From assembly GCA_031431555.1 (NCBI GenBank), contig JANPDN010000206.1, forward strand, positions 15,558 through 79,557: 64,000 bases of DNA, read 5' to 3'. Every line of letters starts with the position of its first letter. Position 1 is the first letter of the stretch. The notes below the pieces were generated by a model. It had not been told where the DNA came from and ran no database searches. It worked only from the letters and a program-made list of their open reading frames with translations. Source of the DNA: Rubrivivax sp. (GTDB lineage Bacteria > Pseudomonadota > Gammaproteobacteria > Burkholderiales > Burkholderiaceae_C). Position numbers and translations under genes: made by a program. Of this stretch, positions 49,748 through 64,000 are shown in pieces.

Positions 49748-50595
49748 TCCGGCCGGCGGTCGAGCACCGGCAGCGGGTGCCGCGACTCGGCCAGCCGCGG
49801 CAGGCAGTTCAGCAGACCCCGGGTGTAGGGGTGCTGCGCTCGGTGCAGGTCGACTGCTGCGACTTCTTCGACCACCCGCCCGGCGTACATCACGAGCACG
49901 CGGTCGCAGAACGACGACACCAGGCGCAGGTCGTGCGAGATGAAGATCAGCCCCATGCCACGCTCGGCGACCAGCTTGTCGAGGATGCCCAGCACCTCAA
50001 GCTGCACCGTGACGTCGAGCGCCGATGTCGGCTCGTCGGCGATCAGCAGTTCAGGCTGCGCGATCAACATCATCGCGATCATCGCGCGCTGGCCCATGCC
50101 GCCCGAGACCTCGTGCGGGTAGAGCTTGAACACCCGCTCGGGGTCGTCGATCTGCACCGCGGCCAGGGCTTCGAGCGCCTGCAGGCGCGCCGCAGCACGC
50201 GCCACCTTGCGGTGCGCACGCAGTGTCTCGACGATCTGCGCGCCGATGCTCATCACCGGGTTGAGCGAATATTTCGGGTCCTGCAAGATCATCGCGATAC
50301 GCCCGCCGCGCAACTCACGGCGCTGGCGCGGCGGGCAGTCCAGCAGATCGATGCCGCTGAACTGCAGCGTTTGGGCCGTGACACGCCCGCCGGGCGCAGT
50401 GAGACCGAGGATCGCGCGCCCGGTTTGTGATTTGCCCGAGCCCGACTCACCGACGATGCCCAGCCGCTCGCGGCCGAGCTTGAAGCTGACCCCGCGCACG
50501 ACTTCCTGCCAGCCGCCGGCGCGCGCGGGGTAGGCCACGCGCAGGTCGTCGACGGTGAGCAAGGCTGGTGGGGATGCTGCGGCGGCTGAGTTCAT
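49735..50595 (-). CDS. Peptide ABC transporter ATP-binding protein (DppD-like)
   Basis: 286 aa. [25 protein letters not shown]. Confidence 0.9.
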
Positions 50596-51494
50596 TTCAC
50601 GGCCTTCGGATCCAGCGCATCACGCAGCCCGTCACCGAGCAGATTGAAAGCCAGGCTGACGATGAAGATCGCCGCGCCGGGCGCGGCGGCGACCCACCAT
50701 TGGTCGAGCACAAACTGGCGGCCGTTGGCGATCATCGCGCCCCATTCGGGCATCGGCGGCTGCGCGCCCAGACCCAGGAATCCCAGGCCCGCCGCGGTGA
50801 GGATGATGCCGGCCATGTCGAGCGTGACACGCACGATCACGCTTGATAGACACAGCGGCATGACATGCCGCAGCACGATGCGCCCGGGGCTGGCACCGAT
50901 CAGCCGCACCGCGCTGATGTAGTCGGCATTGCGGATCGTCAGCGTCTCGGCACGCGCGATGCGGGCATACGGCGGCCAGGACGTGATCGCAATCGCGATG
51001 ACCGCGTTTTCGATCCCCGGCCCGAGCGCGGCGACAAAGGCCAGCGCCAGGATCAGCCGCGGGAAGGCCAGGAAGATATCGGTGATGCGCATCAGCACCG
51101 CATCCAGCCAGCCGCCGGCATACCCCGATGCGGTGCCGACGAGCAACCCGATCGGCGCTGCCAGCACCGCCACCAGCGCCACGACATACAGTGTGATGCG
51201 CGCGCCGTGGATCAGCCGCGACAGGATGTCGCGGCCCTGGTCGTCGGTGCCGAACCAGTGGGCTTGTGAAGGTGGCAACAGCCGCGCGCCGGCCAGGTCG
51301 CCCACCGTCGCCGAATACGGCGCCAACTGATCAGCAAAGATCGCGACCAGCACCAGGGCGACGACGATCAACAGGCCGACCATCGCCAGGCGGTTTTTGG
51401 CGAAGTTGCTCCAGCCGTTGTAGGCGCGGCCGAGTGACGCCTGCCGGCGCGATTTTGGGCGCTCGCTGAGCAGCCAGGTTTGCAGCGTGCTCAT
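50592..51494 (-). CDS. Peptide ABC transporter permease (DppC-like)
   Basis: 300 aa. ..HWFGTDDQGRDILSRLIHG... 4-nt overlaps with both neighbours. Confidence 0.9.
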   Translation of the reverse strand: MSTLQTWLLSERPKSRRQASLGRAYNGWSNFAKNRLAMVGLLIVVALVLVAIFADQLAPYSATVGDLAGARLLPPSQAHWFGTDDQGRDILSRLIHGARITLYVVALVAVLAAPIGLLVGTASGYAGGWLDAVLMRITDIFLAFPRLILALAFVAALGPGIENAVIAIAITSWPPYARIARAETLTIRNADYISAVRLIGASPGRIVLRHVMPLCLSSVIVRVTLDMAGIILTAAGLGFLGLGAQPPMPEWGAMIANGRQFVLDQWWVAAAPGAAIFIVSLAFNLLGDGLRDALDPKAVK

Positions 51495-52543
51495 CGGGCG
51501 TCCCGCGTGCGCGGGTCGAGCACCCGGTACAACAAGTCGCTCGACAGGTTCAGCCCGATGAATACCGTGCCGACGACGATCGTGCCGCCGAGCACCGCGT
51601 TCATATCGGCGTTTTGCAGCGAGTTGGTGATGTACAGCCCCAGGCCCGGCCAGGCGAAGACGGTCTCAGTAAGCACCGAACCTTCAAGCAGCCCGGCGTA
51701 CGACAGCGCGATCACGGTGACCAGCGGCACCATCGCATTGCGCAGCGCGTGGCGCCAGATGATGCGGGCCTCGCTCAGGCCCTTGGCACGCGCGGCGACG
51801 ATGTACTCCTGCGCCAGCTCGTTGAGCATGAACGAACGTGTCATGCGGCTGATGTAGGCCAGCGAAAAATATCCCAGCAAGCCGGCTGGCAGCACGAGGT
51901 GGCTGAGCGCGTTGCGAAAGGCCTCCCATTCGCCAGCGCGGGCGGCGTCGAGCAGCAGCAGGCCGCTGACACGTGGCACGGTGTACTCGTAGGCGACGTC
52001 GATGCGCCCCGGCCCGGCCACCCAATCGAGCTTGGCGTAGAACAACACCAGCGCCATCAGCCCGAGCCAGAAGATCGGCACCGAGTAGCCCACCAGCGCC
52101 ATCACCCGCACCATGTGGTCGGCGACGCCGCCGCGGCGCACCGCCGCCCAGACGCCTAACGGTACACCGAAGCCGGCACCGATGAAGATGCCCACCGTGG
52201 CCAGCTCCAGCGTCGCTGGGAAGGTCTTCTTGATGTCGTCCCAGACCGGGTTGGACGTCAGCACCGAGGTGCCGAAGTCGCCCTGCAGCGCCTTGGCGAC
52301 ATAGATGCCAAACTGCTGCCACAGCGGCTTGTTCAGGCCCATCTCTTCGCGCACACGCTGGATCACATGCTCTGGCGCGCGGTCGCCGACGATCGCCAGC
52401 ACCGGGTCGATCGGGATCACGCGGCCGATGAAAAAGGTGACCGCAAGCAGACCCAGATAAGTCAGGACGACGACGGCTGCAAACCGCCCGATGGCGGCGA
52501 GCAGCCTCGTCGCGCGCTGTGCGCCCAGACCGGCGTCGCTCAA
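51491..52543 (-). CDS. Peptide ABC transporter permease (DppB-like)
   Basis: 350 aa, polytopic. Conserved ..AARAKGLSEARIIWRHALRNA... Confidence 0.9.
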   Translation of the reverse strand: MSDAGLGAQRATRLLAAIGRFAAVVVLTYLGLLAVTFFIGRVIPIDPVLAIVGDRAPEHVIQRVREEMGLNKPLWQQFGIYVAKALQGDFGTSVLTSNPVWDDIKKTFPATLELATVGIFIGAGFGVPLGVWAAVRRGGVADHMVRVMALVGYSVPIFWLGLMALVLFYAKLDWVAGPGRIDVAYEYTVPRVSGLLLLDAARAGEWEAFRNALSHLVLPAGLLGYFSLAYISRMTRSFMLNELAQEYIVAARAKGLSEARIIWRHALRNAMVPLVTVIALSYAGLLEGSVLTETVFAWPGLGLYITNSLQNADMNAVLGGTIVVGTVFIGLNLSSDLLYRVLDPRTRDAR

Positions 52544-52556
52544 GCCGGCGCCCGGG

Positions 52557-54197
52557 TTACTTCTTGCTCACCAAAAACAGGTAGGTCGAGTCAGAAGTCG
52601 GCCCGATCCTGAAGCCGTTGACATTGGCCCGCACCGCCGCGACTTCGGTCTGCTGGTAGAGCATCACAAAGGGGCTCGACGCACGGAACTCGGCCTGGAT
52701 CTCCTGGTACATCTTGGCGCGCTTCGGGCCGTCGCGTTCGAGCGCTGCGGCATCGGCTTTTTTGGTCAGCTCGGGGATGTCCCAGGCGTTGCGCCAGGCC
52801 AGCGGTTTGCTCTTGGCGTCGTCGGCGTTGTTCGGGTTGCGCGCAAAGGTGTCGGCATTCGTATGCGGATCCCAATAGTCAGCACCCCATTGGCCGACGT
52901 AGATGTCATGCGCGCGGGCGCGGTATTTGGTCAACGTCTGTTTGCCGTCACCGGGCAGGATCTCGAGCTCGATGCCGGCCAGTTTGAGCGTTTGCTGCAC
53001 GGCTTCGGTGATGCCCTGCACCGGCTGCACGGTGCGCATGTCGATCGTGACCTTGAAGCCGTTGGGCAGCCCGGCCTTGGCGAGCAGCGCCTTGGCCTTG
53101 GCCACATCGAGCTTGTACGGGTTGTCCTTGGCCGCACCGAGCAGGCCGATGGGCAGGAAGTTCTGGTGCACGACGCCGATATTCTTGATGAAGGTCTTGC
53201 CGATGGTGTCGTAGTCGACCAGCCACTTGAAGGCCTCGCGCACTTCGGGCTTGGCCAGGTTCGGATTTTTCTGGTTCAGGCTGAAGTAGTAGACCGTGCC
53301 CTTGGGCGTGGCCGTCGTCTTGATGTCCTTGTTGGCGGCCAGCGCGTCCAGGTCTTGCGGCGTCAGGTTGCGCGCGATATCGGCGTCGCCTTTTTCGAGC
53401 AGCAGGCGCTGCGTGGCTGATTCCTTCACATGGCGGTAGATCACGCGCGCCAGCGGCGACTTCTCGCCGTGGTAGTTGTCGTTGCGCTCGAGCACGGCGA
53501 GTTCATTCGCCCGCCATTCGCGAATCTTCATCGGCCCGGAGCCGGCGAAGTTGGTCTTCAGCCAGCCATGGCCGAGGTCACTGGCACCGTCTTTCATCGC
53601 CTCCTTGCTGAGCACCAGCTTCTTGTCGACGATGCCGGCGATGTTGGCCGTGAGGCAGTTGTAGACCAGGGTCGGCGCAAAGGCCTTGTCGGTCTCGATG
53701 ACCACCGTCAGTGGCCCGGTCTGCCGGATCTTGTCCTTGACGTTGTCTTTGGTCAGACCGAACTGCGTCAGGATAAAGGCCGGCGTCTTGTCGAGCAGCA
53801 CCGCGCGCTGCAGCGAGAAGACCACGTCTTCGGCGCTGAGTGGGTTGCCAGACGCAAACTTGACATTCGCCCTGAGCTCGAAGGTGTAGGTGCGGCCATC
53901 GGCACCGACGCTCCAGCTTTTGGCCAGGTCGGGCAGCAGCTTGGACGGGTCGGCAACGTCGTAGCGGATCAGCCGGTCGTAGCCGTTACCCATCAGTTCG
54001 CCGGCCGAAATCTCGAAGGCTTCTGCCGGGTCGAGCGAGATGATGTCGTCGAAGGCCGAGGCGATGACGAGGGTGTCTTTGGGCGTCGCTGCAAATGCCG
54101 GCGCCACGGCCAGGCCAAGGGCCAGGCAGGTTGCGGTGGTTGCAACCGTCGCGACAGCCACGGCGCGGCGGGTAAGGCGGACTGAATGCTGCGTCAT
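52557..54197 (-). CDS. ABC transporter substrate-binding protein, family 5
   Basis: ATG 54197 (MTQHSVRLTRRAVAVATVATTATCLALGLAVAPAFA). About 546 aa. Confidence 0.9.
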   Translation of the reverse strand: MTQHSVRLTRRAVAVATVATTATCLALGLAVAPAFAATPKDTLVIASAFDDIISLDPAEAFEISAGELMGNGYDRLIRYDVADPSKLLPDLAKSWSVGADGRTYTFELRANVKFASGNPLSAEDVVFSLQRAVLLDKTPAFILTQFGLTKDNVKDKIRQTGPLTVVIETDKAFAPTLVYNCLTANIAGIVDKKLVLSKEAMKDGASDLGHGWLKTNFAGSGPMKIREWRANELAVLERNDNYHGEKSPLARVIYRHVKESATQRLLLEKGDADIARNLTPQDLDALAANKDIKTTATPKGTVYYFSLNQKNPNLAKPEVREAFKWLVDYDTIGKTFIKNIGVVHQNFLPIGLLGAAKDNPYKLDVAKAKALLAKAGLPNGFKVTIDMRTVQPVQGITEAVQQTLKLAGIELEILPGDGKQTLTKYRARAHDIYVGQWGADYWDPHTNADTFARNPNNADDAKSKPLAWRNAWDIPELTKKADAAALERDGPKRAKMYQEIQAEFRASSPFVMLYQQTEVAAVRANVNGFRIGPTSDSTYLFLVSKK

Positions 54198-54317
54198 CGG
54201 GTGACTCCATCGATTGATCAACGCCGGCAGTATGCGCGGAATCAGGCCCGGATTGCCCAGTCGCTGCTTGCTGGCAACGACCCGACTGAGCGCGTGTCGC
54301 GCACTCCGTGCCTGGGT

Positions 54318-55889
54318 TCAGGTCGCCGGACCGCCCGCCGGTCTGCGTTTGAAAAACCGAATGGTCTGCTCGCGCACCGGCCGGGCCGGCGCACCATGGG
54401 CGACCAGTGTCTCGTCCAGCTTGACGCCGGCGTCGTCGGCCAGCGCGGCTTCGCGGGCGGCGCGGACTGCCGCTGCACGCTCAGGCGCAGCGTTAGGTAC
54501 TTGCGTTGACGTAGCGAAGGCCAGGTGGTCGATGATGTGCAGCAGGTTGTCCTTGCCACGCTCGTTGGTGCTGCCGTAACCCTTGATGAGCCGGCCGCAC
54601 AGCGCGAGCTCATGGCCGAGCGCCCAGTGTTCGCGCGCACCACGGTCGATCGCCGCCAGCCAGCGCTCGATCAGGCGCTGCTCCAGCGCGAAGCGGCTGC
54701 CGCGACGGCGCTGGCCCTTCAGCGCCGCGGCGGCCTTGAGCGCCAGCGTGCCGAATACCGTGTGGCTGCCGATCTTCAGTGGCAGCGCCCAGGGGTCGAG
54801 GCCGTGCATCACGCGCCGGCGGTCCCAGGCGACCAGCCTGGTCGCCAGTGACGCTGGCAGCAATGCTGCGAACTCGGGCACACCGGGTTTGAAATGATCG
54901 AAAACCTTGACGATCTCGTCGTCGCCCGCCGCGACTTCGCTGCGCACCCGCAACTGGCGGCTTGCAGCGAGCTTGAGCGCTGCGACCTGCACGATATCGT
55001 CGAAGGCCATCCACAGCGCCAGCCAGCGTGTCACCTCCAACGCCGTCGCCCCGCGGTGGGCGGCGCCGGGGTCACCCGCGGCCTCGGCGGCTTCGGTCTG
55101 CGCCATCCGCTTTTCATACAACGCGGTGTAGTCGGCGTCCTGGTAACTCGTCAGGCGCTGCCTGGCGATCGCGCGCAGGTCGGGCGCGCGCGTTAGAGAC
55201 ACCGGTGGCGGTGGCGGTGGTGCGGGCTGCAGTGCGGCGTCGACCACCGCGCGCTGGGCGCGGCGCTGAGTCAATGCATCGAAAGCGAGCGCAAAACCGC
55301 GCAGGCTCGGCTGCACACCTTTGCCCGCGGCGTGGATTGTTTCTTCGTAAACGGCGCGCGAAAAGGGCAACACGCCGCTGGCTGCGATGGCGCCAAAAAG
55401 CACCGCGCTGATCGCGCTGCCGGCGCTGTTCGCGAGCGCTGCAAGGTCGAGCAACTCGGTTTCGCGGCCATGGCGTTGCAGCGTGGTGATGAGCGCGGCG
55501 GCGTCGATGCGGCCGTCGGTCATCTGCATTTTTTCGGCCACCGTCAACGCGCGCGAGGTGCTGCTGATCACAAAAGTGCGCTCGGCGCTGACCATGCCGG
55601 CGCCGACCTGGCGCACCGTCTCGAGCAACTCAGAAGAGACCAGCAGGTCGATGCCGCCGGGTACCGGGTTCAGGCTGAAGACCGGGCGCGGGCCGGCGCG
55701 CGCAGCGTCGGTCTGCGGGTGAATCTCGATGTAGTAGGTGGTGGCGCCGGTGCGCTGCGCGACCCCCGGCACCGACGTCGCCTGCACGCTGTGGCCGGCG
55801 CGCACTGCGGTGTCGTAGAGCCATTCGGCGAGCACGCCGCCGCCTTCGCCGCCCAAGGCGCAGACGAGGACCGTGATCGGAGATTGCAT
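54318..55889 (-). CDS. iorB: Indolepyruvate ferredoxin oxidoreductase, beta subunit family
   Basis: ATG 55889: MQSPITVLVCALGGEGGGVLAEWLY..VPGVAQRTGATTYYIEI. Long C-terminal extension. Confidence 0.8.
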   Translation of the reverse strand: MQSPITVLVCALGGEGGGVLAEWLYDTAVRAGHSVQATSVPGVAQRTGATTYYIEIHPQTDAARAGPRPVFSLNPVPGGIDLLVSSELLETVRQVGAGMVSAERTFVISSTSRALTVAEKMQMTDGRIDAAALITTLQRHGRETELLDLAALANSAGSAISAVLFGAIAASGVLPFSRAVYEETIHAAGKGVQPSLRGFALAFDALTQRRAQRAVVDAALQPAPPPPPPVSLTRAPDLRAIARQRLTSYQDADYTALYEKRMAQTEAAEAAGDPGAAHRGATALEVTRWLALWMAFDDIVQVAALKLAASRQLRVRSEVAAGDDEIVKVFDHFKPGVPEFAALLPASLATRLVAWDRRRVMHGLDPWALPLKIGSHTVFGTLALKAAAALKGQRRRGSRFALEQRLIERWLAAIDRGAREHWALGHELALCGRLIKGYGSTNERGKDNLLHIIDHLAFATSTQVPNAAPERAAAVRAAREAALADDAGVKLDETLVAHGAPARPVREQTIRFFKRRPAGGPAT

Positions 55890-55908
55890 CAGCGCTGGCC
55901 CCCGCGCT

Positions 55909-56892
55909 TCATTCGGCGGTGATCTTGGCTTCGCGGATGAAAGCGCCAAAGCGCGCGCGGTCGGCGTTCTGGCGGTCGATGAATTCCTGCCGCGAACTGA
56001 TCATCGCCTCAGCCCCGAGGCCGCGGATCGCATCAGCCACACGCGGCGCGGCGAGCGCCTTGTTGATCTCGTCGTGCAACAGGCTGACCACCCCCGGCGG
56101 CGTGCCACCGGGCGCGTAGAGGCCGAAGACCGTATCTGCATCAAAACCGGGCAGGCCGCTTTCTGCAATCGTCGGCACATCGGGCAAGGTGCTCGATCGT
56201 TTGGGGCTGCCGACGGCGAGCAATTTCAGCTTGCCTTCGCGGGCGTGGCGCAGGCCCGGGCCGGGGTCGAACATGAACTGCACCTGGCCGGCGAGCAGGT
56301 CGGTCAGCGCCGGCGCGGCGCCGCGGTAGGGCACATGGACTGCAAACAGCCCGAGGCCGCGTTTCATCATCTCAGCCGACAAGTGCGGCGAGCTGCCGCT
56401 GCCGGCCGAGGCATAACTCAGCTTGCCAGGATTGGCTTTGACATACGCAAAAAACTCTTTCACGTTATTCGCCGGCACCGACGGATGGGCCATCAAAAAG
56501 ACCAGCACCCGCGCCGCGCTGGCCACCGGTGTCAGGTCCTTGGCCGGGTCGAACGGCATGTTGGCGTAGAGGAACGGATTGACCGTCATCGCGCCGCCGC
56601 TGCTCATCAACAGCGTGTAGCCGTCGGCGGCTGATTTGGCGACCGCGTCGGCGCCGAGGTTGCCGTTGGCACCGGGCCGGTTCTCGACCACCACCTGCGT
56701 TTTGAGCTGCTCGCCGAGCACCGCGCCGAGCGAGCGCCCGATGACATCGGCCGCGCCACCCGGCGGAAAATTGACGATCAGCCTGATCGGCTTGTTCGGG
56801 AACGCCGGCGCCTGGGCGAGCGCGGCCGTCGGCAGCGCAGCGGCGGCCAGCAGCATTGCGCCGACGAGGTTCTTTGTGAAGACTGGTTTCAT
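55909..56892 (-). CDS. Bug-family (TctC-like) substrate-binding protein
   Basis: 327 aa. Signal peptide, then FPNKPIRLIVNFPPGGAADV. Confidence 0.85.
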   Translation of the reverse strand: MKPVFTKNLVGAMLLAAAALPTAALAQAPAFPNKPIRLIVNFPPGGAADVIGRSLGAVLGEQLKTQVVVENRPGANGNLGADAVAKSAADGYTLLMSSGGAMTVNPFLYANMPFDPAKDLTPVASAARVLVFLMAHPSVPANNVKEFFAYVKANPGKLSYASAGSGSSPHLSAEMMKRGLGLFAVHVPYRGAAPALTDLLAGQVQFMFDPGPGLRHAREGKLKLLAVGSPKRSSTLPDVPTIAESGLPGFDADTVFGLYAPGGTPPGVVSLLHDEINKALAAPRVADAIRGLGAEAMISSRQEFIDRQNADRARFGAFIREAKITAE

Positions 56893-56914
56893 TCGTTAGC
56901 TCCGATATCAGGTT

Positions 56915-59074
56915 TCAGGCCGGCCGCAGCACCGCAGTCAGCGACTGCCGCCAGCGTGCGAGCAGGCGTTCGTGCCACTTCGGGTTTTGCACGATCTCGG
57001 CGCGGTAAAAGCTCGGGCACAGCGTTGCCGCATGCGCGTTGGCGCCACACAGGCCGCAGCCGACACAGCCTTCGATGACGGTGGCCACCGGGTCCACGCG
57101 CAGCGGGTCGGGGTTGTCCTTCAGCGTCAGCGTCGGGCAGCCCGACAGCCGGATGCAGGCATGGTCCCCCGTGCAGACATCTTCATCGACGCCGTACTTC
57201 ACGCGCTCAAGGCGTTCGCCGCGCTTTAACAATCCAGCCATCCAGGGCTTGATGCGGCGCTGGCGTTCGAGTTGGCATTCACCTTCGGCGACGATGACTT
57301 TCAGGCCGGTGAACTTGGCGGTGAAGGCGTCCTGCAAGGTGCGCCGCATGGCGTCGACATCGTAGGTGTGCACGACCCGCATCCACGTAACACCCATGCC
57401 GGCAAGCGTGGTTTCGATGGTCTGGTTTTTGTGCGCCAGGCTCTGGTGCAGTTGTGAATTCAACTCGGCGTCGGCCTTGGCTGCGTCATCGGGGGTATTC
57501 AGGATGTCCTGCGTGCCGGTGGCCGAGGTGTAGCCGTTTTTCATGATCATCAGCACCGCGTCGTCGCCGTTGAACAGCGCCGACTGCACCCCCGTCAACA
57601 GGCCGTTGTGCCAGAACCCGCCGTCGCCCATGATCGCCAGCGTGCGCCGCTGCATCATCGGCGAAACCCCGGCGCGGCTGGCCAGGCTCATGCCGTAACC
57701 GAGGATCGAATGGCCCGATGAAAAGGGCTCGAACGTCGCCAGGGCGTGGCAGCCGATATCGGCGGCGATATGCACCGGGCCGACGTTCTGCTGCGCGAGT
57801 TTGAGCGCTGAAAATACCGGCCGCTCCGGGCAGCCGACACAAAAACTCGGCGGCCGCGCCGGCAAGGTGCCCATCAGCCTGGCGACATCGGCGCGGCGCT
57901 GCGCATTGCCGGCGAGCCAGGCGCGCGCCGCGCTCAGGTCCACATCGGGCAGGTATTTTTCGACAAAGCCGATGAGCCCCGGCACGATCGCCTCGACGGT
58001 GTATTCGCCCACCGGCGGCAGCAGATCCTTGCCATGCACCGGCGTTTGCACATCGTTCTTGCGCAGCGCCTGGACGAGGTCCTTTTCGATGTACTCGGGT
58101 GAGCCTTCTTCGAGCATCAAGACCGCGCGGCGGCCGACACAAAACGCACTGACCTCGGCCGGCACCAGCGGGTAGGTGACATTGAGCACCAGCATCGGCA
58201 GCACGCTCGAGCCCAGCGCATCGGCCAAGCCAAGCTGCTGCAAGGCACGCACCACGGCGTTGTACAGGCCGCCTTGCACGACCAGGCCGACCTCGCTGCG
58301 GGCACCGTCGAAATGTTCATTCAGCCGGTGCTCGGCGATGTACCGCTGCGCTGCGGGCAGCCGCTGTTCGACTTTCAGTTTTTCGTGACGAAAGGTCACC
58401 GGCGGGTGGGCCAACCGCATGTAGTCAAAGCGCGCCGGCTCGTCGATCAGGTCGCGCGTATTGAACCGCGGCGCGACGTTGTCCTTGGCGATAAACGTGC
58501 CGCGCAGGTGGCAGGTGCGGATGCGCAACTCCATCACCGCCGGCATGTTGCTGGCTTCGCTCAAGGCGAATGCATGCTCGACCAAGCGCACCATGTTCGC
58601 CAGATCCGGCCGCGGGTCAAACAGTGCCAGCGTGCTCTTCAATGCAAATGCGTGGGTGCGCTCCTGGATCACGCTGGCACCTTCGCCGTAATCTTCGCCG
58701 ACGACGATCAGCGCCCCGCCAACGACACCGGGTGAAGCCAGGTTGCTCAAGGCATCGGCAGCGACATTGGTGCCGACGATCGACTTCCAGGTCACCGCGC
58801 CGCGCAGCGGATAGTGGATCGACGCGCCGAGCATTGCCGCGGCAGACGCTTCGTTGGCACAGGCTTCGACATGCACGCCGAGGGTGTCGACATAGGGCTT
58901 GGCCTGGACCATCACATCGAGCAGATGCGATACCGGCGCACCCTGGTAGCCGCCGATATAAGCGACCCCGGATTGCAGCAAGCCCTTGGTGATCGCCAGG
59001 ATGCCTTCGCCATGAAAGGTGGCGCCGGCGCCGAGCTTGAGTTGTTCGATCTGGTCGGTGAACTGGACTTCCAT
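56915..59074 (-). CDS. iorA: Indolepyruvate ferredoxin oxidoreductase, alpha subunit (TPP + 4Fe-4S)
   Basis: 719 aa. TPP-binding ..MGDGGFWHNG... C-terminal ferredoxin cysteines CIRLSGCP and CVGCGLCG. Confidence 0.85.
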   Translation of the reverse strand: MEVQFTDQIEQLKLGAGATFHGEGILAITKGLLQSGVAYIGGYQGAPVSHLLDVMVQAKPYVDTLGVHVEACANEASAAAMLGASIHYPLRGAVTWKSIVGTNVAADALSNLASPGVVGGALIVVGEDYGEGASVIQERTHAFALKSTLALFDPRPDLANMVRLVEHAFALSEASNMPAVMELRIRTCHLRGTFIAKDNVAPRFNTRDLIDEPARFDYMRLAHPPVTFRHEKLKVEQRLPAAQRYIAEHRLNEHFDGARSEVGLVVQGGLYNAVVRALQQLGLADALGSSVLPMLVLNVTYPLVPAEVSAFCVGRRAVLMLEEGSPEYIEKDLVQALRKNDVQTPVHGKDLLPPVGEYTVEAIVPGLIGFVEKYLPDVDLSAARAWLAGNAQRRADVARLMGTLPARPPSFCVGCPERPVFSALKLAQQNVGPVHIAADIGCHALATFEPFSSGHSILGYGMSLASRAGVSPMMQRRTLAIMGDGGFWHNGLLTGVQSALFNGDDAVLMIMKNGYTSATGTQDILNTPDDAAKADAELNSQLHQSLAHKNQTIETTLAGMGVTWMRVVHTYDVDAMRRTLQDAFTAKFTGLKVIVAEGECQLERQRRIKPWMAGLLKRGERLERVKYGVDEDVCTGDHACIRLSGCPTLTLKDNPDPLRVDPVATVIEGCVGCGLCGANAHAATLCPSFYRAEIVQNPKWHERLLARWRQSLTAVLRPA

Positions 59075-59226
59075 GCCGTGATTGCGCGCGCTGTGCTTGC
59101 CGGAGATTGCAAGCGCGAACTCTAGGCAGCGGCGGGGGCGTCGTCCATCGGGTCAATCGGCCAACTCGGGCCCGTCACTGCACTGCCGCCCCACAGGGCG
59201 GGCATTCGATGCCGCGAAGCGCGGTC

Positions 59227-59463
59227 TCAGCTGAGCATCAGCGACTGCACCCAGCCGCCGGACTGCACTTGGGCTTCAACCCGGCGCGGTGGCTCGTGAC
59301 GCAGGCCGATCGCAACGCGGCCGGTCCAGAAGATCATGCGGCCGGTGCCGGGCAACCAGGCCGGGCCGGTGTAGCCGCTGGGCATGGCCACCGGCGGCAC
59401 GTCACTTTGGTGGTGGATCGCGGGTTCGTCGGCAAGCAAATCTGCAGTCAATCGGTTGAACAC
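59227..59463 (-). CDS. Small hypothetical protein (weak call)
   Basis: GTG 59463 preceded by AGGAG (the longer ORF reaches 59517). 78 aa, no motif recognised. Confidence 0.3.
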   Translation of the reverse strand: MFNRLTADLLADEPAIHHQSDVPPVAMPSGYTGPAWLPGTGRMIFWTGRVAIGLRHEPPRRVEAQVQSGGWVQSLMLS

Positions 59464-59650
59464 GGGGCGCTCCTGAAACGGTGAACCGATGATCAACAGA
59501 TTCAGCGCCGCGCACATCCACCGGGATGCACGCGCTCATCCACGGGGGCGCGGCCGGCTAGTCGTGAAGCAGTTGTCAAACTGCTGTAACGAGCGTCGAT
59601 TTGTGCCGGCTGGGTTGTAACCATGCGGCTGGTGGCTTGGGCTGTTCTCG

Positions 59651-59723
59651 CAGCCGGGGTTGGGGTGGCCGGCTTCGGTTGTGGAATTCTTACGCCCTAC
59701 GCCGGCCACCCCAGCCCCGGCTG
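59651..59723. repeat. REP-like palindromic element, copy 1
   Basis: 23-bp stem (cagccggggttggggtggccggc / gccggccaccccagccccggctg, one G-T mismatch) around a 27-nt loop containing tggaattctta. Confidence 0.8.
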
Positions 59724-59807
59724 AGCCGGTGGCGGCCGGGCGCTGCAAATACCAGTCTCGCTCGCTGTTCCGGTTCGCACTTCGGAGGCCGACAAATCTG
59801 CTCGCCG

Positions 59808-59880
59808 AGCCGGTGTGGGGGTGGCCCGGCGTAGTGCATAAGAATTCCATAAACGCAGCCGGGCCACCCCAGCGCCGGCT
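59808..59880. repeat. REP-like palindromic element, copy 2 (inverted relative to copy 1)
   Basis: ggggtggcccggc-N27-gccgggccacccc. The loop reverse complement matches the copy 1 loop at 22 of 27 positions (shared tggaattctta). Confidence 0.8.
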
Positions 59881-59981
59881 GTGCGCGCGCCGCTGCCGGA
59901 GTGCGCAATACCCGCAGCGACCTGGCCTTACTCCGGTCCACTGCCGCGCGCGAGACGCGCGGCTGGCCGCGTAAGGCACTC

Positions 59982-60001
59982 GGCTGCGCGCAGGCGCAGC
60001 C
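59982..60001 (-). terminator. GC hairpin 9 nt downstream of the WS/DGAT stop (terminator-like, no U tract)
   Basis: ggctgcgc-gcag-gcgcagcc, 8-bp stem. A second hairpin, ccgcgcg-cgaga-cgcgcgg, is at 59944-59962. Confidence 0.25.
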
Positions 60002-60009
60002 TCATGACC

Positions 60010-61452
60010 TTACTCCGCCCAAGGCATCATCATCGTGAGCATCAGGAGCTTTTCAAACTCAGGCTCGAAGATGTCGATGATGGCTTGCGGGTCGGGGCAG
60101 AGTTTTTGGTCGGTGATCAAACCGAACTGCACGCCGCCGCCATACGACAGGATCGACACGCCGATGCCGATGTCGCCCGAGGCCGGCACCCAGAACATGT
60201 TTTGGCGCAGCGTCGCGCCGCAGAACTTGAGCGGCTCCGCCGGGCCGGGCACGTTGGTCATCACCGCGGTGGCCTTCTTGGAGAACAGGTTCAGCACCGC
60301 GTCCTGCACCGGCTTGATGAACAGGCCACTCAAGGACAGCACCGCAAACGCCAGCAACGGCTGGTAGCTGCCTTTGAGTTCGGCCATGCGCCGGTGCACC
60401 GCGTAGACCCGCTCGACCGGGTTGTCGATGCCGATCGGCAGCACCAGCGGCGCCAGGCCGAAGCGGTTGCCGAGCTGCCAGGCCTTTTCCATCGGCCGCA
60501 GGTTGACCGGCACCATGGCGCGGATTTCCTTGCCCTGCGGGTCTTCGCCGCGGTCGCGCAGAGACTGGCCGATGGCCCCCGCGACACACGACAACAGCAC
60601 ATCGTTGATCGAGCAGTTCAGGCCCTTGCCCACCGTCTTGACCAGGTGCAGCGGCAACGGCTCGCTCCAGGCGACAACCTTCTTGCCGATCGGTTTGCCC
60701 TTCAGCGCGGTCGGCGAATCGTCGGCGAGCAGCGCGAGCGCAGCCACGTCGCTGAGCACCTGCATGCCGGACTTGGCCATGTCCATCGACCCACTCAAGC
60801 CACCGGCGACCGAGCCTTGCGGGTTGGACAACATCTCCAGAGATTTAGTGACACCGCCGCCATACATGCCGATGGCCTTGACCGCGATATCGCTCAAGGG
60901 CTTGAGCACGGCATCGGACAACCAGTCACCGCCATCCGCGTCGGCAGCTGCGGCTTCGCGCTTGCGGCGCTTCGGCGGGTCGGCGCCGCCGTCGGTGATG
61001 CTCATCATCACCGAGATCAGCGCGATGCCGTCGGCGATGCAATGGTGGATGCGGGCGATCAGCGCGCTGCCGCCTTCGTAGTCGTCGATGAGGTGAAACT
61101 GCCACAGCGGCCGGCGCGCATCGAGCGGCGTTGTCGCCAGTTCGCCGCAGAGCAGTTGCAACGCAGCACGTTCGCTTTGGCCAGGCTTCGGCGCCAGGTG
61201 GATCTGCACGACATGGCGCTCGAGGTCGAAGTTGTCGTCGGCGACCCACATCGCGCCCATCGCGTCGGCCACCGCGCGTTGTTTGAATCGGTCGTACTTG
61301 AGCAGCTTGTCGGCGATGCGTTCGCGCAGGGCCTCGATGGTGATCGCCGGGGTCAGCATCCAGACGCCGACGATCATCATCAGGTTGACGTCGTTGTCCA
61401 TCCGCAACCAGGCGGTATCGACGCGCGACATGCGCTCGGTGGGGGTGGGCAT
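60010..61452 (-). CDS. Wax ester synthase / diacylglycerol acyltransferase (WS/DGAT) family
   Basis: ATG 61452: MPTPTERMSRVDTAWLRMD. Catalytic HHCIADGIAL (HHxxxDG). About 480 aa. Confidence 0.85.
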   Translation of the reverse strand: MPTPTERMSRVDTAWLRMDNDVNLMMIVGVWMLTPAITIEALRERIADKLLKYDRFKQRAVADAMGAMWVADDNFDLERHVVQIHLAPKPGQSERAALQLLCGELATTPLDARRPLWQFHLIDDYEGGSALIARIHHCIADGIALISVMMSITDGGADPPKRRKREAAAADADGGDWLSDAVLKPLSDIAVKAIGMYGGGVTKSLEMLSNPQGSVAGGLSGSMDMAKSGMQVLSDVAALALLADDSPTALKGKPIGKKVVAWSEPLPLHLVKTVGKGLNCSINDVLLSCVAGAIGQSLRDRGEDPQGKEIRAMVPVNLRPMEKAWQLGNRFGLAPLVLPIGIDNPVERVYAVHRRMAELKGSYQPLLAFAVLSLSGLFIKPVQDAVLNLFSKKATAVMTNVPGPAEPLKFCGATLRQNMFWVPASGDIGIGVSILSYGGGVQFGLITDQKLCPDPQAIIDIFEPEFEKLLMLTMMMPWAE

Positions 61453-61543
61453 TCGGCAAGGCTCCAAAGGGCTACTGTCTGCGGCCCACGATGCTGGGTA
61501 ACATCGCGACCGTCAATGCCCATTTTCACCCAAGGACAAAGCG

Positions 61544-61798
61544 ATGGCCGACCTCAAAACAACGTTCGACAAAGCGGTGGCAGATTCGAAGAAGCTGCCC
61601 GAGAAGCCCGACAACAACACCTTGCTCAAGCTCTACGCGCTTTACAAACAAGCCACCGAAGGCGACGTCGAAGGCAAGCGCCCCGGCTTCACCGACATGG
61701 TCGGCCGCGCCAAATTCGACGCCTGGGCGGCGGTCAAGGGCACCGCCGATGCGACGGCGATGCAGGACTATGTCGACCTCATCGAATCGCTGAAATAA
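61544..61798 (+). CDS. Acyl-CoA-binding protein (ACBP)
   Basis: 84 aa: ..KLPEKPDNNTLLKLYALYKQATEGDV..KPGFTDMVGRAKFDAW.., the classic ACBP pattern. Confidence 0.9.
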   Translation: MADLKTTFDKAVADSKKLPEKPDNNTLLKLYALYKQATEGDVEGKRPGFTDMVGRAKFDAWAAVKGTADATAMQDYVDLIESLK

Positions 61799-61847
61799 GC
61801 GGCACGGGCGTTCCAACTTAGGGGGAGCGCTTGCCTCGTCGCCCCGC

Positions 61848-63455
61848 TTGCGCTATCAAGCCCGAGTGAAATTCGAACGCCACGCTTTTATCAGCTACGC
61901 GCACATCGATGACGAGCCGCTGCTCGCCGATGATGACGGCTGGGTCACGATGTTCCATCGCACGCTGCAGCAGCAGCTCGCGATGCGCCTGGGCGAAAAG
62001 GCCAATATCTGGCGCGACGAACGCCTGCGCCCGATCGAGGATTTTTCGGCCGAGATCACCGACAAGCTTGCCGGTGCGGCGGTGTTGATCTCGGTGCTCT
62101 CGCCGCGTTATCTCAAATCCGACTGGTGCCTGCGCGAGCTCACGACATTCTGCGATCTGGCCGAGCGCGAAACCGGCCTCATGCTCGACAACAAGAGCCG
62201 GGTCTTCAAGGTCCTCACGCTGCCGCTCGAGAACCGCAACGACGCCAGCCTGCCGGCAGCGATGAACCGTGCACTGGGTTACGAGTTTTTTGCGCCCGGC
62301 CCAGACGGCGACGAGCTGCCGCTGGCGCCGAGTTTTGGCGAAGAGTACAAGCAAAAATTCCTGCGCAAGGTGTCGTCTGTGGCCGCCGACATCAAGCGCA
62401 TGATGACCCTGCTCGACGCCGAAGCGCCGCGCCCCGACGCACTGCCGGCGCAGCCGAAGCCGACGGTTTATCTGGCCACCTGCAGCCAGGACCGGCGCGA
62501 CAGCCGCGAGATGCTGGCCACCGAACTCGAGCGCCTGGGCTGCACCGTGCTGCCCGATCGCCAGTTGCCCACCGACGAGTTGAGCTTTGTCGACGAAGTG
62601 CGTGGCATGCTCGCGCGCAGCCGGCTCAGCGTGCATCTGGTCGGCGCGGCTTACGGCCTGGTGCCCGAAGGTGCTTCGGGCAAATCGGTCGTCGAGCTTC
62701 AAAATCAACTCGCCGTGCAACGTTGCCGCGAGGCCGGCCGCGGCGCGCTGGCACGGCTGATCTGGCTGCCTGAAAACGATTCGAGTTCAGCCACCTCGCC
62801 GCCAGTGCCCGCGGTCCAGGCCGCGTTCATCCATCGCTTGCACACCGATGCCGAGGCACAGTTTGGTGCCGACCTGATCTGCGCCGATTTCGAGACCCTG
62901 AAACTCAGCGTGCGCAACGCGCTCGACCGACTCAACAAGCCGCCCGCAGCGGCACCGCACAGGTCCGACGACACCGTCGGCACTGACGGCCTCGTGACGA
63001 CGGCGTCGCGCCGTCGCATCGTCCACCTCGTGCACTGCGAGCCCGACCGCAAGACCTTCATCGATCTGCTGCGTTTGCTCGGTGAAACTGCCAATGTCAC
63101 GCGCCCGGTCTTCGCCGGCGACGCCGGCGTGCTGCGCGAAGCCAACCAAGCACTGCTGATGGCCTGCGACGAGGTCTGGCTCTACTACGGCAGCGGTGAC
63201 GACGCCTGGAAGTACCACCAGCAAAACGAACTGCGCCGCATCCGCGGACTGCGCACCGAGCGGCCGTTGCCGGCCGACACCGTGGTCCTGGCGCTGCCCG
63301 ACAACGACGACAAGGCGGTGCTGGCCGAAGTCGGCGACCCCGGCTGCGTGGTGCTCGACCTGCGCGCCGGCATCAGCCCCGAGATGCGCTTGGCCGTCGG
63401 CGCGCTGCTGGCGAGCCGCGCGCCTGCGGTTGACCCAGGCCCGCCGCAATCATGA
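61848..63455 (+). CDS. TIR-domain protein with two additional TIR-like/Rossmannoid modules
   Basis: 535-aa ORF (TTG 61848, or GTG 61866). HAFISYAHIDDEP..IWRDERLRPIEDF..AAVLISVLSPRYLKSDWCLRELT. Modules 2 and 3 begin PTVYLATCSQDRRDSREMLATELERLGCTV and RRIVHLVHCEPDRKTFIDLLRLLGE. Confidence 0.8.
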   Translation: MRYQARVKFERHAFISYAHIDDEPLLADDDGWVTMFHRTLQQQLAMRLGEKANIWRDERLRPIEDFSAEITDKLAGAAVLISVLSPRYLKSDWCLRELTTFCDLAERETGLMLDNKSRVFKVLTLPLENRNDASLPAAMNRALGYEFFAPGPDGDELPLAPSFGEEYKQKFLRKVSSVAADIKRMMTLLDAEAPRPDALPAQPKPTVYLATCSQDRRDSREMLATELERLGCTVLPDRQLPTDELSFVDEVRGMLARSRLSVHLVGAAYGLVPEGASGKSVVELQNQLAVQRCREAGRGALARLIWLPENDSSSATSPPVPAVQAAFIHRLHTDAEAQFGADLICADFETLKLSVRNALDRLNKPPAAAPHRSDDTVGTDGLVTTASRRRIVHLVHCEPDRKTFIDLLRLLGETANVTRPVFAGDAGVLREANQALLMACDEVWLYYGSGDDAWKYHQQNELRRIRGLRTERPLPADTVVLALPDNDDKAVLAEVGDPGCVVLDLRAGISPEMRLAVGALLASRAPAVDPGPPQS

Positions 63456-63510
63456 GCCGAAGGGCCGCTCCCGAGGCGAATACCGCAGCGCGTAGCGCAG
63501 AGGTTGCCCG

Positions 63511-64000
63511 ATGACGCTGGAGGCCACGGCCGCTGCGCCGCCGAGCAACCCCTACCCCGGCCTGCGGCCTTTTCGCGAAGAAGAAGAGCATCTGTTTTTC
63601 GGCCGCGAGCACCAGGTCGACGGCATGGTCGACCGGCTGGCGCAGACCCACTTTCTGGTCGTCGTGGGCACCTCGGGGTCGGGCAAGTCGTCGCTCGTCA
63701 ACTGCGGCCTGCGCCCGGCGCTGCACCGCGGTCTGCTCGCCAGCGCCGGCACCCATTGGCGGGTGGCACAGTTCCGCCCTGGCGACCGGCCGCTGCATGC
63801 GCTGGCCGAGGCGTTGGCTGGCGTGCGCCCCGGGTTTGCCGAAGACGGCCCGTTTTCGCTCGACGATTTGATCGAGTCGACACTGCGATCAAGCAAGCTT
63901 GGCCTGCTCGATGCAATCGAAGAGTCGGGCCTGGCTGACGACAACAATTTGTTGATCGTGGCCGATCAGTTTGAAGAGCTGTTCCGCTACCGCGACCTCG
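63511..64000 (+). CDS. STAND-class P-loop NTPase (NACHT/nSTAND-like), N-terminal 163 codons; continues beyond the window
   Basis: Own translation from ATG 63511: ..NPYPGLRPFREEEEHLFFGREHQVDGMVDRL..VVVGTSGSGKSSLV (Walker A)..LLIVADQFEELFRY (Walker B). No stop before 64000, so it is absent from the ORF track. Confidence 0.8.
   Translation, partial: MTLEATAAAPPSNPYPGLRPFREEEEHLFFGREHQVDGMVDRLAQTHFLVVVGTSGSGKSSLVNCGLRPALHRGLLASAGTHWRVAQFRPGDRPLHALAEALAGVRPGFAEDGPFSLDDLIESTLRSSKLGLLDAIEESGLADDNNLLIVADQFEELFRYRDL

Follow-up and report, generated by a model that had tools for sequence, protein, structure and literature searches.

At the end of the window, by which we mean the whole 64,000-nucleotide stretch of a Rubrivivax sp. 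contig analyzed here, two co-directional genes on the forward strand (window 61848–64000) encode a soluble protein with three TIR-like modules (gene 1) and a STAND NTPase (gene 2). An earlier note on this DNA had read them as a candidate conflict or defense operon, and the present analysis followed up that reading. The maximal open reading frame (ORF) of gene 1 runs from a TTG at 61848 to 63455 on the forward strand (535 aa). Its true start is most likely the GTG at 61866 (61866–63455, 529 aa), because a 100%-identical database protein (P0001) is 529 aa long and all homologs begin five residues before FISYAH in the family alignment. An exact-sequence look-up with the 535-aa TTG-start protein returned no match, the database copy having the GTG start; residues of gene 1 are numbered throughout according to the 529-aa form. 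The ATG of gene 2 lies at 63511; the window edge truncates the gene (63511 to >64000, forward strand), leaving the N-terminal 163 aa of its product. The spacer between the genes measures 55 nt (63456–63510, forward strand), as the earlier note had given it, and every peptide quoted there is present in the translations: FISYAHID, VLISVLSPRYLKSDWCLRELT, VYLATCSQDRRDSREMLATELERLGCTV and IVHLVHCEPDRKTFIDLLRLLGE in gene 1, and NPYPGLRPFREEEEHLFFGRE, GTSGSGKSS and LLIVADQFEELF in gene 2.

Both genes are real rather than chance ORFs, given at least 298 homologs of gene 1 in 90% clusters, nearly all of them ~500 aa long, and low ratios of nonsynonymous to synonymous substitution rates (dN/dS; gene 1, 0.16; gene 2, 0.07). 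These ratios were computed between the window and L001, an orthologous, syntenic locus in a related betaproteobacterial metagenome-assembled genome (MAG) that is 91% identical and collinear from window position 60103 to the window end; over its 163 readable residues, gene 2 shares 93% amino acid identity with its L001 ortholog. Within gene 1, dN/dS was 0.063 for module 1, 0.13 for module 2 and 0.16 for module 3, while the inter-module linker is near neutral (0.73); the flanking ACBP and WS/DGAT-like genes gave 0.07–0.10. All modules of gene 1, as well as gene 2, are therefore under purifying selection. At 50% identity, the gene 1 family comprises 2250 clusters (E ≤ 1e-30), and relatives were present in 494 of ~185,000 species-representative genomes.

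The pairing of the two genes, a candidate operon in the earlier note, is strict. We examined the 80 best genome loci among the 494 genomes with relatives, plus three metagenome loci, and counted as informative the 78 of the 80 genome loci in which the DNA continues past gene 1. An nSTAND1 gene lies directly downstream on the same strand in 78/78 of these loci, across many phyla, and these downstream genes match the gene 2 fragment of the window at E ≤ 1e-47. A 4-nt overlap of the two genes, a geometry typical of translational coupling, was seen in 62 of 79 non-redundant loci. The 55-nt spacer of the window is atypical in this respect: relative to L001, ~59 extra nucleotides, located in the last part of gene 1 and between the genes (window 63430–63510), turn the usual 4-nt overlap into a spacer. 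All-against-all clustering of 899 called ORFs from 81 loci revealed no third conserved gene, the next largest cluster occurring in only 18 loci. Among the best 80 loci, the pair was found in Acidobacteriota, Alpha-, Beta-, Gamma- and Deltaproteobacteria, Binatia, Methylomirabilota and Nitrospirales, as well as in Gemmatimonadota, Planctomycetes, Verrucomicrobia, Cyanobacteria and Entotheonella. Most of the family is found in lineages from soil, sludge and sediment, for example Acidobacteriota and Zoogloea. One cultured strain, Zoogloea oryzae NBRC 102407, carries a member, which makes the family accessible to experimental testing.

An AlphaFold2 model of the gene 1 protein, built with a 47-sequence alignment, showed three consecutive beta-alpha modules (mean predicted local distance difference test score (pLDDT), 85.9). 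Module 1 (aa 1–190; 61866–62435, forward strand) is the canonical TIR domain that had been recognized from its opening motif: Pfam TIR_2, of the STIR clan, matched aa 14–103 with 47.7 bits (cut-off, 28; E 2.8e-12), and Pfam TIR scored 24.8 bits (cut-off, 21.3). The top Foldseek matches of the full-length model in the PDB were the plant NADase TIRs RPP1 and RUN1, together with SARM1. The SxWCxxE region, already proposed to hold the catalytic glutamate, corresponds to S85-x-W-C88-x-x-E91 (SDWCLRE), with the codon of E91 at 62136–62138 on the forward strand. Across 196 unique gene 1 relatives, the set used for all residue-conservation counts, Y82, S85, C88, E91 and F95 are invariant (196/196). 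We propose that module 1 is a canonical, catalytically competent TIR domain, predicted from its sequence to cleave NAD+.

Module 2 (aa 196–362; 62451–62951, forward strand) is related to DUF4062, the domain also called NIR or TeTIR. In the window protein, Pfam DUF4062 (PF13271) matched at E 0.0017–0.0098 with 16.5–18.9 bits, below the gathering score of 24.7; across the family, a match at E ≤ 1 was obtained for 23 of 24 members (best E, 2.5e-6), and PF13271 is also among the precomputed annotations of several relatives in the database. DUF4062 has been shown experimentally to be a TIR-like NADase effector domain whose function is abolished by Glu-to-Gln or Glu-to-Ala substitution (bioRxiv 10.64898/2026.05.01.722283; 10.64898/2026.09.04.749371), the essential catalytic glutamate being E97 in KpSwz, E108 in PsAvs2, E98 in Vulcan, E103 in VstA and E1008 in TEP1 (2026 preprints). 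The module 2 profile aligned without gaps to KpSwz (PDB 10wc, an E97A construct) over 68 residues; anchoring on the S-x4-E-x3-A motif, in which S274 and A283 are nearly invariant, sets KpSwz E97 opposite Q279 (codon 62700–62702, forward strand). Position 279 is glutamine in 183 and glutamate in 13 of the 196 relatives. Module 2 is thus most likely a catalytically degenerate NIR-like module, as judged from the glutamine at the catalytic position in 183/196 sequences. The residue at position 281 (codon 62706–62708, forward strand) was considered as a substitute catalytic residue and rejected: it is glutamate in 84% of the family, but glutamine in the window protein, and it lies on another helix face. 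A search of the module 2 profile against PDB sequences gave no significant match (KpSwz, E 0.84).

Module 3 (aa 380–522; 63003–63431, forward strand) adopts a fold resembling TIR domains and nucleoside 2-deoxyribosyltransferases, as assigned by AlphaFold2 and Foldseek; it belongs to no Pfam family, with no Pfam match in 23 family members. Folded alone, it reached a pLDDT of 94.9, and its best PDB matches by Foldseek were DNPH1, nucleoside 2-deoxyribosyltransferases, the CMP N-glycosidase BcmB, and the TIR domains of RRS1/RPS4 and MyD88 (TM-scores 0.5–0.65, probability ~1.0, E only ~1e-3), which bears out the earlier suggestion of a TIR-like fold. Comparison of modules 2 and 3 with hhalign indicated a weak link (probability 41%, E 2.7e-4, 94 columns). 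The module 3 profile had no significant match among PDB sequences and no alignment to KpSwz. Position 455 (E455 in the window protein; codon 63228–63230, forward strand) is always acidic (Glu or Asp) and W448 is invariant among the 196 relatives. The "tripled" TIR-like architecture described in the earlier note therefore holds as three TIR-like modules; it does not extend to three active enzymes, as module 2 lacks the NIR catalytic glutamate.

Variants of gene 1 with four modules (650–672 aa) also occur, among them P0121, P0122, P0138 and P0151. In P0121 the DUF4062-like module is doubled; the first copy has a glutamate in the place equivalent to the catalytic residue (LENEL), where the second has Ala/Gly (LANGL). 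In another relative, P0213 (783 aa), the reading frame of the gene 1 homolog continues directly into an nSTAND1 N-terminus (NPYPGLRPF...GGSGSGKSS) and from there into sequence that appears to be out of frame, representing either a rare fusion or a sequencing frameshift.

Gene 2 carries the STAND signature that had been read from its N-terminus: it matched Pfam nSTAND1 (PF20703) at E 3.4e-36 with 126 bits against a cut-off of 27.1, and both its Walker A motif (G53–S61, GTSGSGKSS; 63667–63693, forward strand) and its Walker B motif (L147–E156, LLIVADQFEE; 63949–63978, forward strand) are intact. The match covers profile positions 1–130 of 379, with profile position 1 at aa 14; the profile likewise started at aa 9–14 in all nine partner NTPases scanned (9/9). 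Because the nSTAND1 profile begins at aa 14, gene 2 has no N-terminal effector or adaptor domain. The ortholog in L001 (L001:3350–7399) is 1349 aa long and comprises an nSTAND1 module, a hydrophobic helix at ~aa 516 and WD40 propellers, in keeping with the earlier expectation that the NTPase continues into sensor repeats instead of ending as a short ATPase. Among 70 complete partner NTPases, the C-terminus is variable, with WD40 repeats in 20/70 (the L001 ortholog among them), TPR in at least one of those scanned and an RDD domain in at least one; apart from those with additional hydrophobic segments, described below, the remaining C-termini match no assigned domain. On a single contig (CAVPOL010000006.1), the pair occurs twice, as L029 and L036, with NTPases of 1380 and 574 aa that differ in their C-termini; this is consistent with receptor-like diversification. 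Another apparent pair of paralogs, L053 and L055 from one MAG, was discarded, as the two are 97.8%-identical near-duplicate contigs and probably represent strain variants or an assembly duplicate.

A 19-residue hydropathy scan located one strongly hydrophobic segment of ~20 residues at aa 484–532 in 69 of the 70 complete partner NTPases. Ahead of it come the nSTAND1 module, then a DPDLxxALxW...WAxRY...FLxxS motif that is conserved, and a charged helix. Averaged over the 74 NTPases with 560 aa or more, the 19-residue hydropathy of this segment was 2.25, compared with 1.36 for the best window within the NTPase module; for the gene 1 family the best window averaged 1.29, exceeded the threshold of 1.7 in only 8/196 members and reached a maximum of 1.99, and the window protein has no segment of transmembrane grade by sequence reading, in agreement with the earlier note. 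The segment is kept in position and character while its sequence is not conserved, and the 15 residues before it contain more Lys and Arg than those after it (mean 5.5 against 3.2), the N-terminal side being the more positive in 66/74 NTPases. It thus behaves as expected of a membrane helix, and the positive-charge bias on its N-terminal side would place the N-terminus inside and the C-terminus outside the cytoplasm. Beyond it, three to four further hydrophobic segments were found in four NTPases and eight to nine in three. Taken at face value, these features suggest that the NTPase probably sits in the cytoplasm, is anchored by one transmembrane helix and exposes its variable C-terminal domain outside the cytoplasm.

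The pair adjoins lipid-metabolism-type genes in the window, an ACBP gene and a WS/DGAT-like gene (60010–61467, reverse strand), and the GC content of the locus is host-like, both as stated in the earlier note. A 646-aa ORF on the forward strand (59881–61821) was set aside; it is antisense to the WS/DGAT-like gene, overlaps the ACBP gene, is Arg/Ala/Gly-rich and is most likely a high-GC artifact. Neither an Rfam scan at gathering thresholds of positions 50000–64000 nor a search of the whole window for tRNAs produced a hit, a sigma-70 scan from the ACBP gene to gene 1 yielded no promoter-like site, and terminator counts equaled the shuffled expectation. In the ~930-nt gap between a 719-aa oxidoreductase gene and the WS/DGAT-like gene, window 59640–59890 contains two copies of a GC-rich hairpin ~156 nt apart (arms 59651–59678/59696–59723, 89% complementary, and 59800–59830/59858–59888). 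They have no Rfam match and look like REP/BIME-type extragenic palindromes. More widely, a survey of 131 immediate neighbors in 37 related loci included two ADP-ribosylglycohydrolases and three AAA_21/AriA-like ATPases.

We consider it about an even chance that the two genes act together as a single functional unit, namely a split NLR-like receptor that spans the membrane and has a TIR NADase as its output. In such a receptor, the external domain of the NTPase would detect a signal in the periplasm or envelope, upon which the nSTAND1 module would oligomerize in the cytoplasm in a nucleotide-dependent manner. Stoichiometrically co-produced TIR proteins bound to the NTPase would thereby be clustered, the TIR active sites of module 1 would assemble, and module 1 would cleave NAD+, leading either to NAD+ depletion with growth arrest or cell death, or to production of a signal nucleotide. 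Modules 2 and 3 would most likely be non-catalytic or accessory, docking onto the NTPase, auto-inhibiting module 1 or binding an NAD-derived ligand. The interpretation offered in the earlier note is supported at the level of architecture, and defense is a putative role. Its analogy with Avs and bNACHT, in which a TIR effector is joined to a STAND sensor, stands as far as the architecture goes; it does not carry over to the location of the sensor, which the predicted helix probably puts outside the cytoplasm.

Several observations weigh against this receptor model. Gene 2 is cut at aa 163, so its helix and WD40 repeats are deduced from the 91%-identical orthologous locus, and the hydrophobic helix itself rests on a simple hydropathy scan rather than a dedicated topology predictor. 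The proteins of gene 1 and gene 2 share no adaptor domain that would explain their binding. Placement of the module 2 catalytic site requires a two-residue loop insertion, the gapless alignment giving a non-conserved valine, although neither the anchored nor the gapless alignment leaves a conserved glutamate at that site; in module 3, E455 may occupy a catalytic site. Finally, the 131 neighbors are mostly housekeeping genes (peptidases, ABC binding proteins and aminotransferases), and defense-island enrichment is not clear, as few of them match PADLOC, mainly generic ATPases and some STAND-like proteins.

The genomic setting bears most directly on a reading in which the pair is not antiphage at all and instead serves outside-in signaling or regulated dormancy, responding to envelope stress, interbacterial attack, or kin and community cues with NAD+ turnover as its output. 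The housekeeping neighborhoods, the synteny of the window locus with a related MAG, its host-like GC content and the prevalence of the family in soil, sludge and sediment lineages are all compatible with this alternative, and the predicted external sensor would perceive periplasmic rather than cytoplasmic events. We nevertheless regard it as rather unlikely, since the combination of TIR, NIR-like and STAND domains with variable repeats and paralogs within a genome is a hallmark of conflict systems, and since the flanks vary by lineage, suggesting that the pair moves as a unit.

Topology, in turn, separates the membrane-spanning receptor from a cytoplasmic, Avs-like system, in which the hydrophobic segment would be no membrane helix, the soluble WD40 or TPR end of the STAND protein would bind a phage protein and the TIR protein would deplete NAD+ in trans. 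For characterized antiviral STANDs, recognition of phage proteins does take place in the cytoplasm (Nature 2026, PMC13581612; PsAvs2), cytosolic STANDs typically carry WD40 or TPR sensors (PMC13581612), and the NTPase topology proposed here comes from hydropathy prediction only. However, a segment of transmembrane grade that occupies the same place in 69/70 NTPases, without sequence conservation and with a positive-inside bias, speaks against a soluble protein, as do the RDD domain or the additional hydrophobic stretches (as many as nine in three of the NTPases) that several members carry past the helix. PADLOC also returned no Avs matches, and a cytoplasmic system of this kind seems distinctly improbable to us.

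Very unlikely, lastly, is a Thoeris-like arrangement in which the TIR protein is both sensor and signal generator, its module 1 makes a cyclic ADP-ribose-type molecule and either the SLOG/DRHyd-related modules 2 and 3 or the membrane NTPase act as receptor and effector, for instance by membrane disruption: bacterial TIRs can make signaling nucleotides (bioRxiv 10.64898/2025.12.03.692087), module 1 has weak ThsB-type matches (PADLOC ThsB, E 5.9e-4; ThcB4, E 0.0019), module 2 without its catalytic glutamate is compatible with ligand binding and the partner NTPase is predicted to be membrane-anchored, yet the ThsB scores lie far below any threshold, STAND NTPases are known as sensor switches and not as effectors, no known Thoeris effector domain (SIR2-SLOG, Macro-TM or caspase-like) is present, and the NTPase C-terminus is variable, paralog-specific and receptor-like.

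Returning to the split receptor, it is possible, and we propose this tentatively, that the family constitutes a widespread two-polypeptide, Toll-like outside-in receptor, consisting of an extracytoplasmic WD40, TPR or other sensor, a single transmembrane helix, a cytoplasmic STAND module and, switched on by the latter, a separate TIR protein with two degenerate TIR/NIR-like regulatory modules. If so, it would be the first NLR-like system to sense envelope events, such as phage adsorption or injection and interbacterial attack, instead of cytoplasmic ones. Should the predicted topology hold, bacterial NLR-like sensing would extend to the periplasm, and the pair would offer a tractable model for the regulation of an active TIR by pseudo-enzymatic TIR-like domains.

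Finally, we compared the pair with known systems. The earlier note had called it undescribed, and no PADLOC 2.0 system matched it; neither the two genes nor the full-length relatives searched had a system-level or equivalog match in PADLOC or NCBIfam, and the literature on nSTAND1, DUF4062 and TIR/STAND pairs covers related themes, with no published description of this gene pair found. One close framework is that of the nSTAND1 conflict systems described by Kaur, Burroughs, Iyer and Aravind (eLife 2021, PMC8195603), who introduced nSTAND1 as the NTPase of conflict systems that also contain TIR and other effectors. Gene 2 belongs to the NTPase clade of these systems (PF20703), and in them, too, the NTPase occurs together with TIR or other effectors and variable C-terminal sensors. 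In those systems, however, effectors or EAD adaptors are fused N-terminally and FGS or lectin sensors dominate, whereas here no domain precedes the NTPase module, a separate ~500-aa protein of three modules is always the effector, with no shared adaptor, and a predicted transmembrane helix lies between NTPase and sensor.

Avs/AVAST and bNACHT systems likewise combine an effector, a STAND NTPase and C-terminal repeats, and their TIR or NIR NADase effectors deplete NAD+; they are single cytoplasmic polypeptides, unlike the two genes described here with a sensor predicted to lie outside the cytoplasm. Membership in Avs/AVAST was rejected, as the NTPase starts at nSTAND1 profile position 1 with no fused effector and PADLOC gave no Avs or bNACHT match. 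The FxSxx-COOH system was rejected as well. Its TIR-like protein FxsC (NCBIfam NF040588), whose genes accompany a STAND-TPR protein, gave the best NCBIfam score for module 1, but this was 58.7 bits for the window protein and 46–56 for relatives against a cut-off of 130, and FxSxx peptide and radical-SAM genes are absent among the common neighbors. FxsC is a related TIR subfamily that belongs to a different system. Assignment to Thoeris was also rejected, with ThsB matching only at E 5.9e-4 and an nSTAND1 NTPase as the sole conserved partner.

Resemblance to the NIR systems (Swarozyc, Evangelion, Vulcan, Vesta and PsAvs2; 2026 preprints) lies in the two rear modules. For 23/24 members of the family, module 2 matches DUF4062, and the Foldseek spectrum of module 3, with CMP N-glycosidase, ribosyltransferases and TIRs, is that reported for a NIR domain. 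Those systems carry a single NIR domain with an essential glutamate (E97, E108, E98 or E103), while the NIR-like modules here follow a canonical TIR, and the glutamine that prevails in module 2 (183/196) is the very substitution used experimentally to inactivate NIR. Animal Toll-like receptors provide an analogy of layout only, with an external repeat sensor, a single transmembrane helix and a cytoplasmic TIR output. Here, the sensors show no homology to theirs (WD40 or other domains, not leucine-rich repeats), a STAND NTPase is interposed, and the TIR resides on a separate polypeptide that keeps its enzymatic glutamate, the topology being a prediction. The parts of the system, namely TIR NADases, NIR/DUF4062 NADases and STAND/NLR-like switches, are known, and their combination is uncatalogued: new in this respect are the obligatory split between effector and NTPase, the predicted membrane-spanning STAND with its external, lineage-variable domain, and the joining of a TIR to two TIR-like modules of which at least one lacks the catalytic glutamate.

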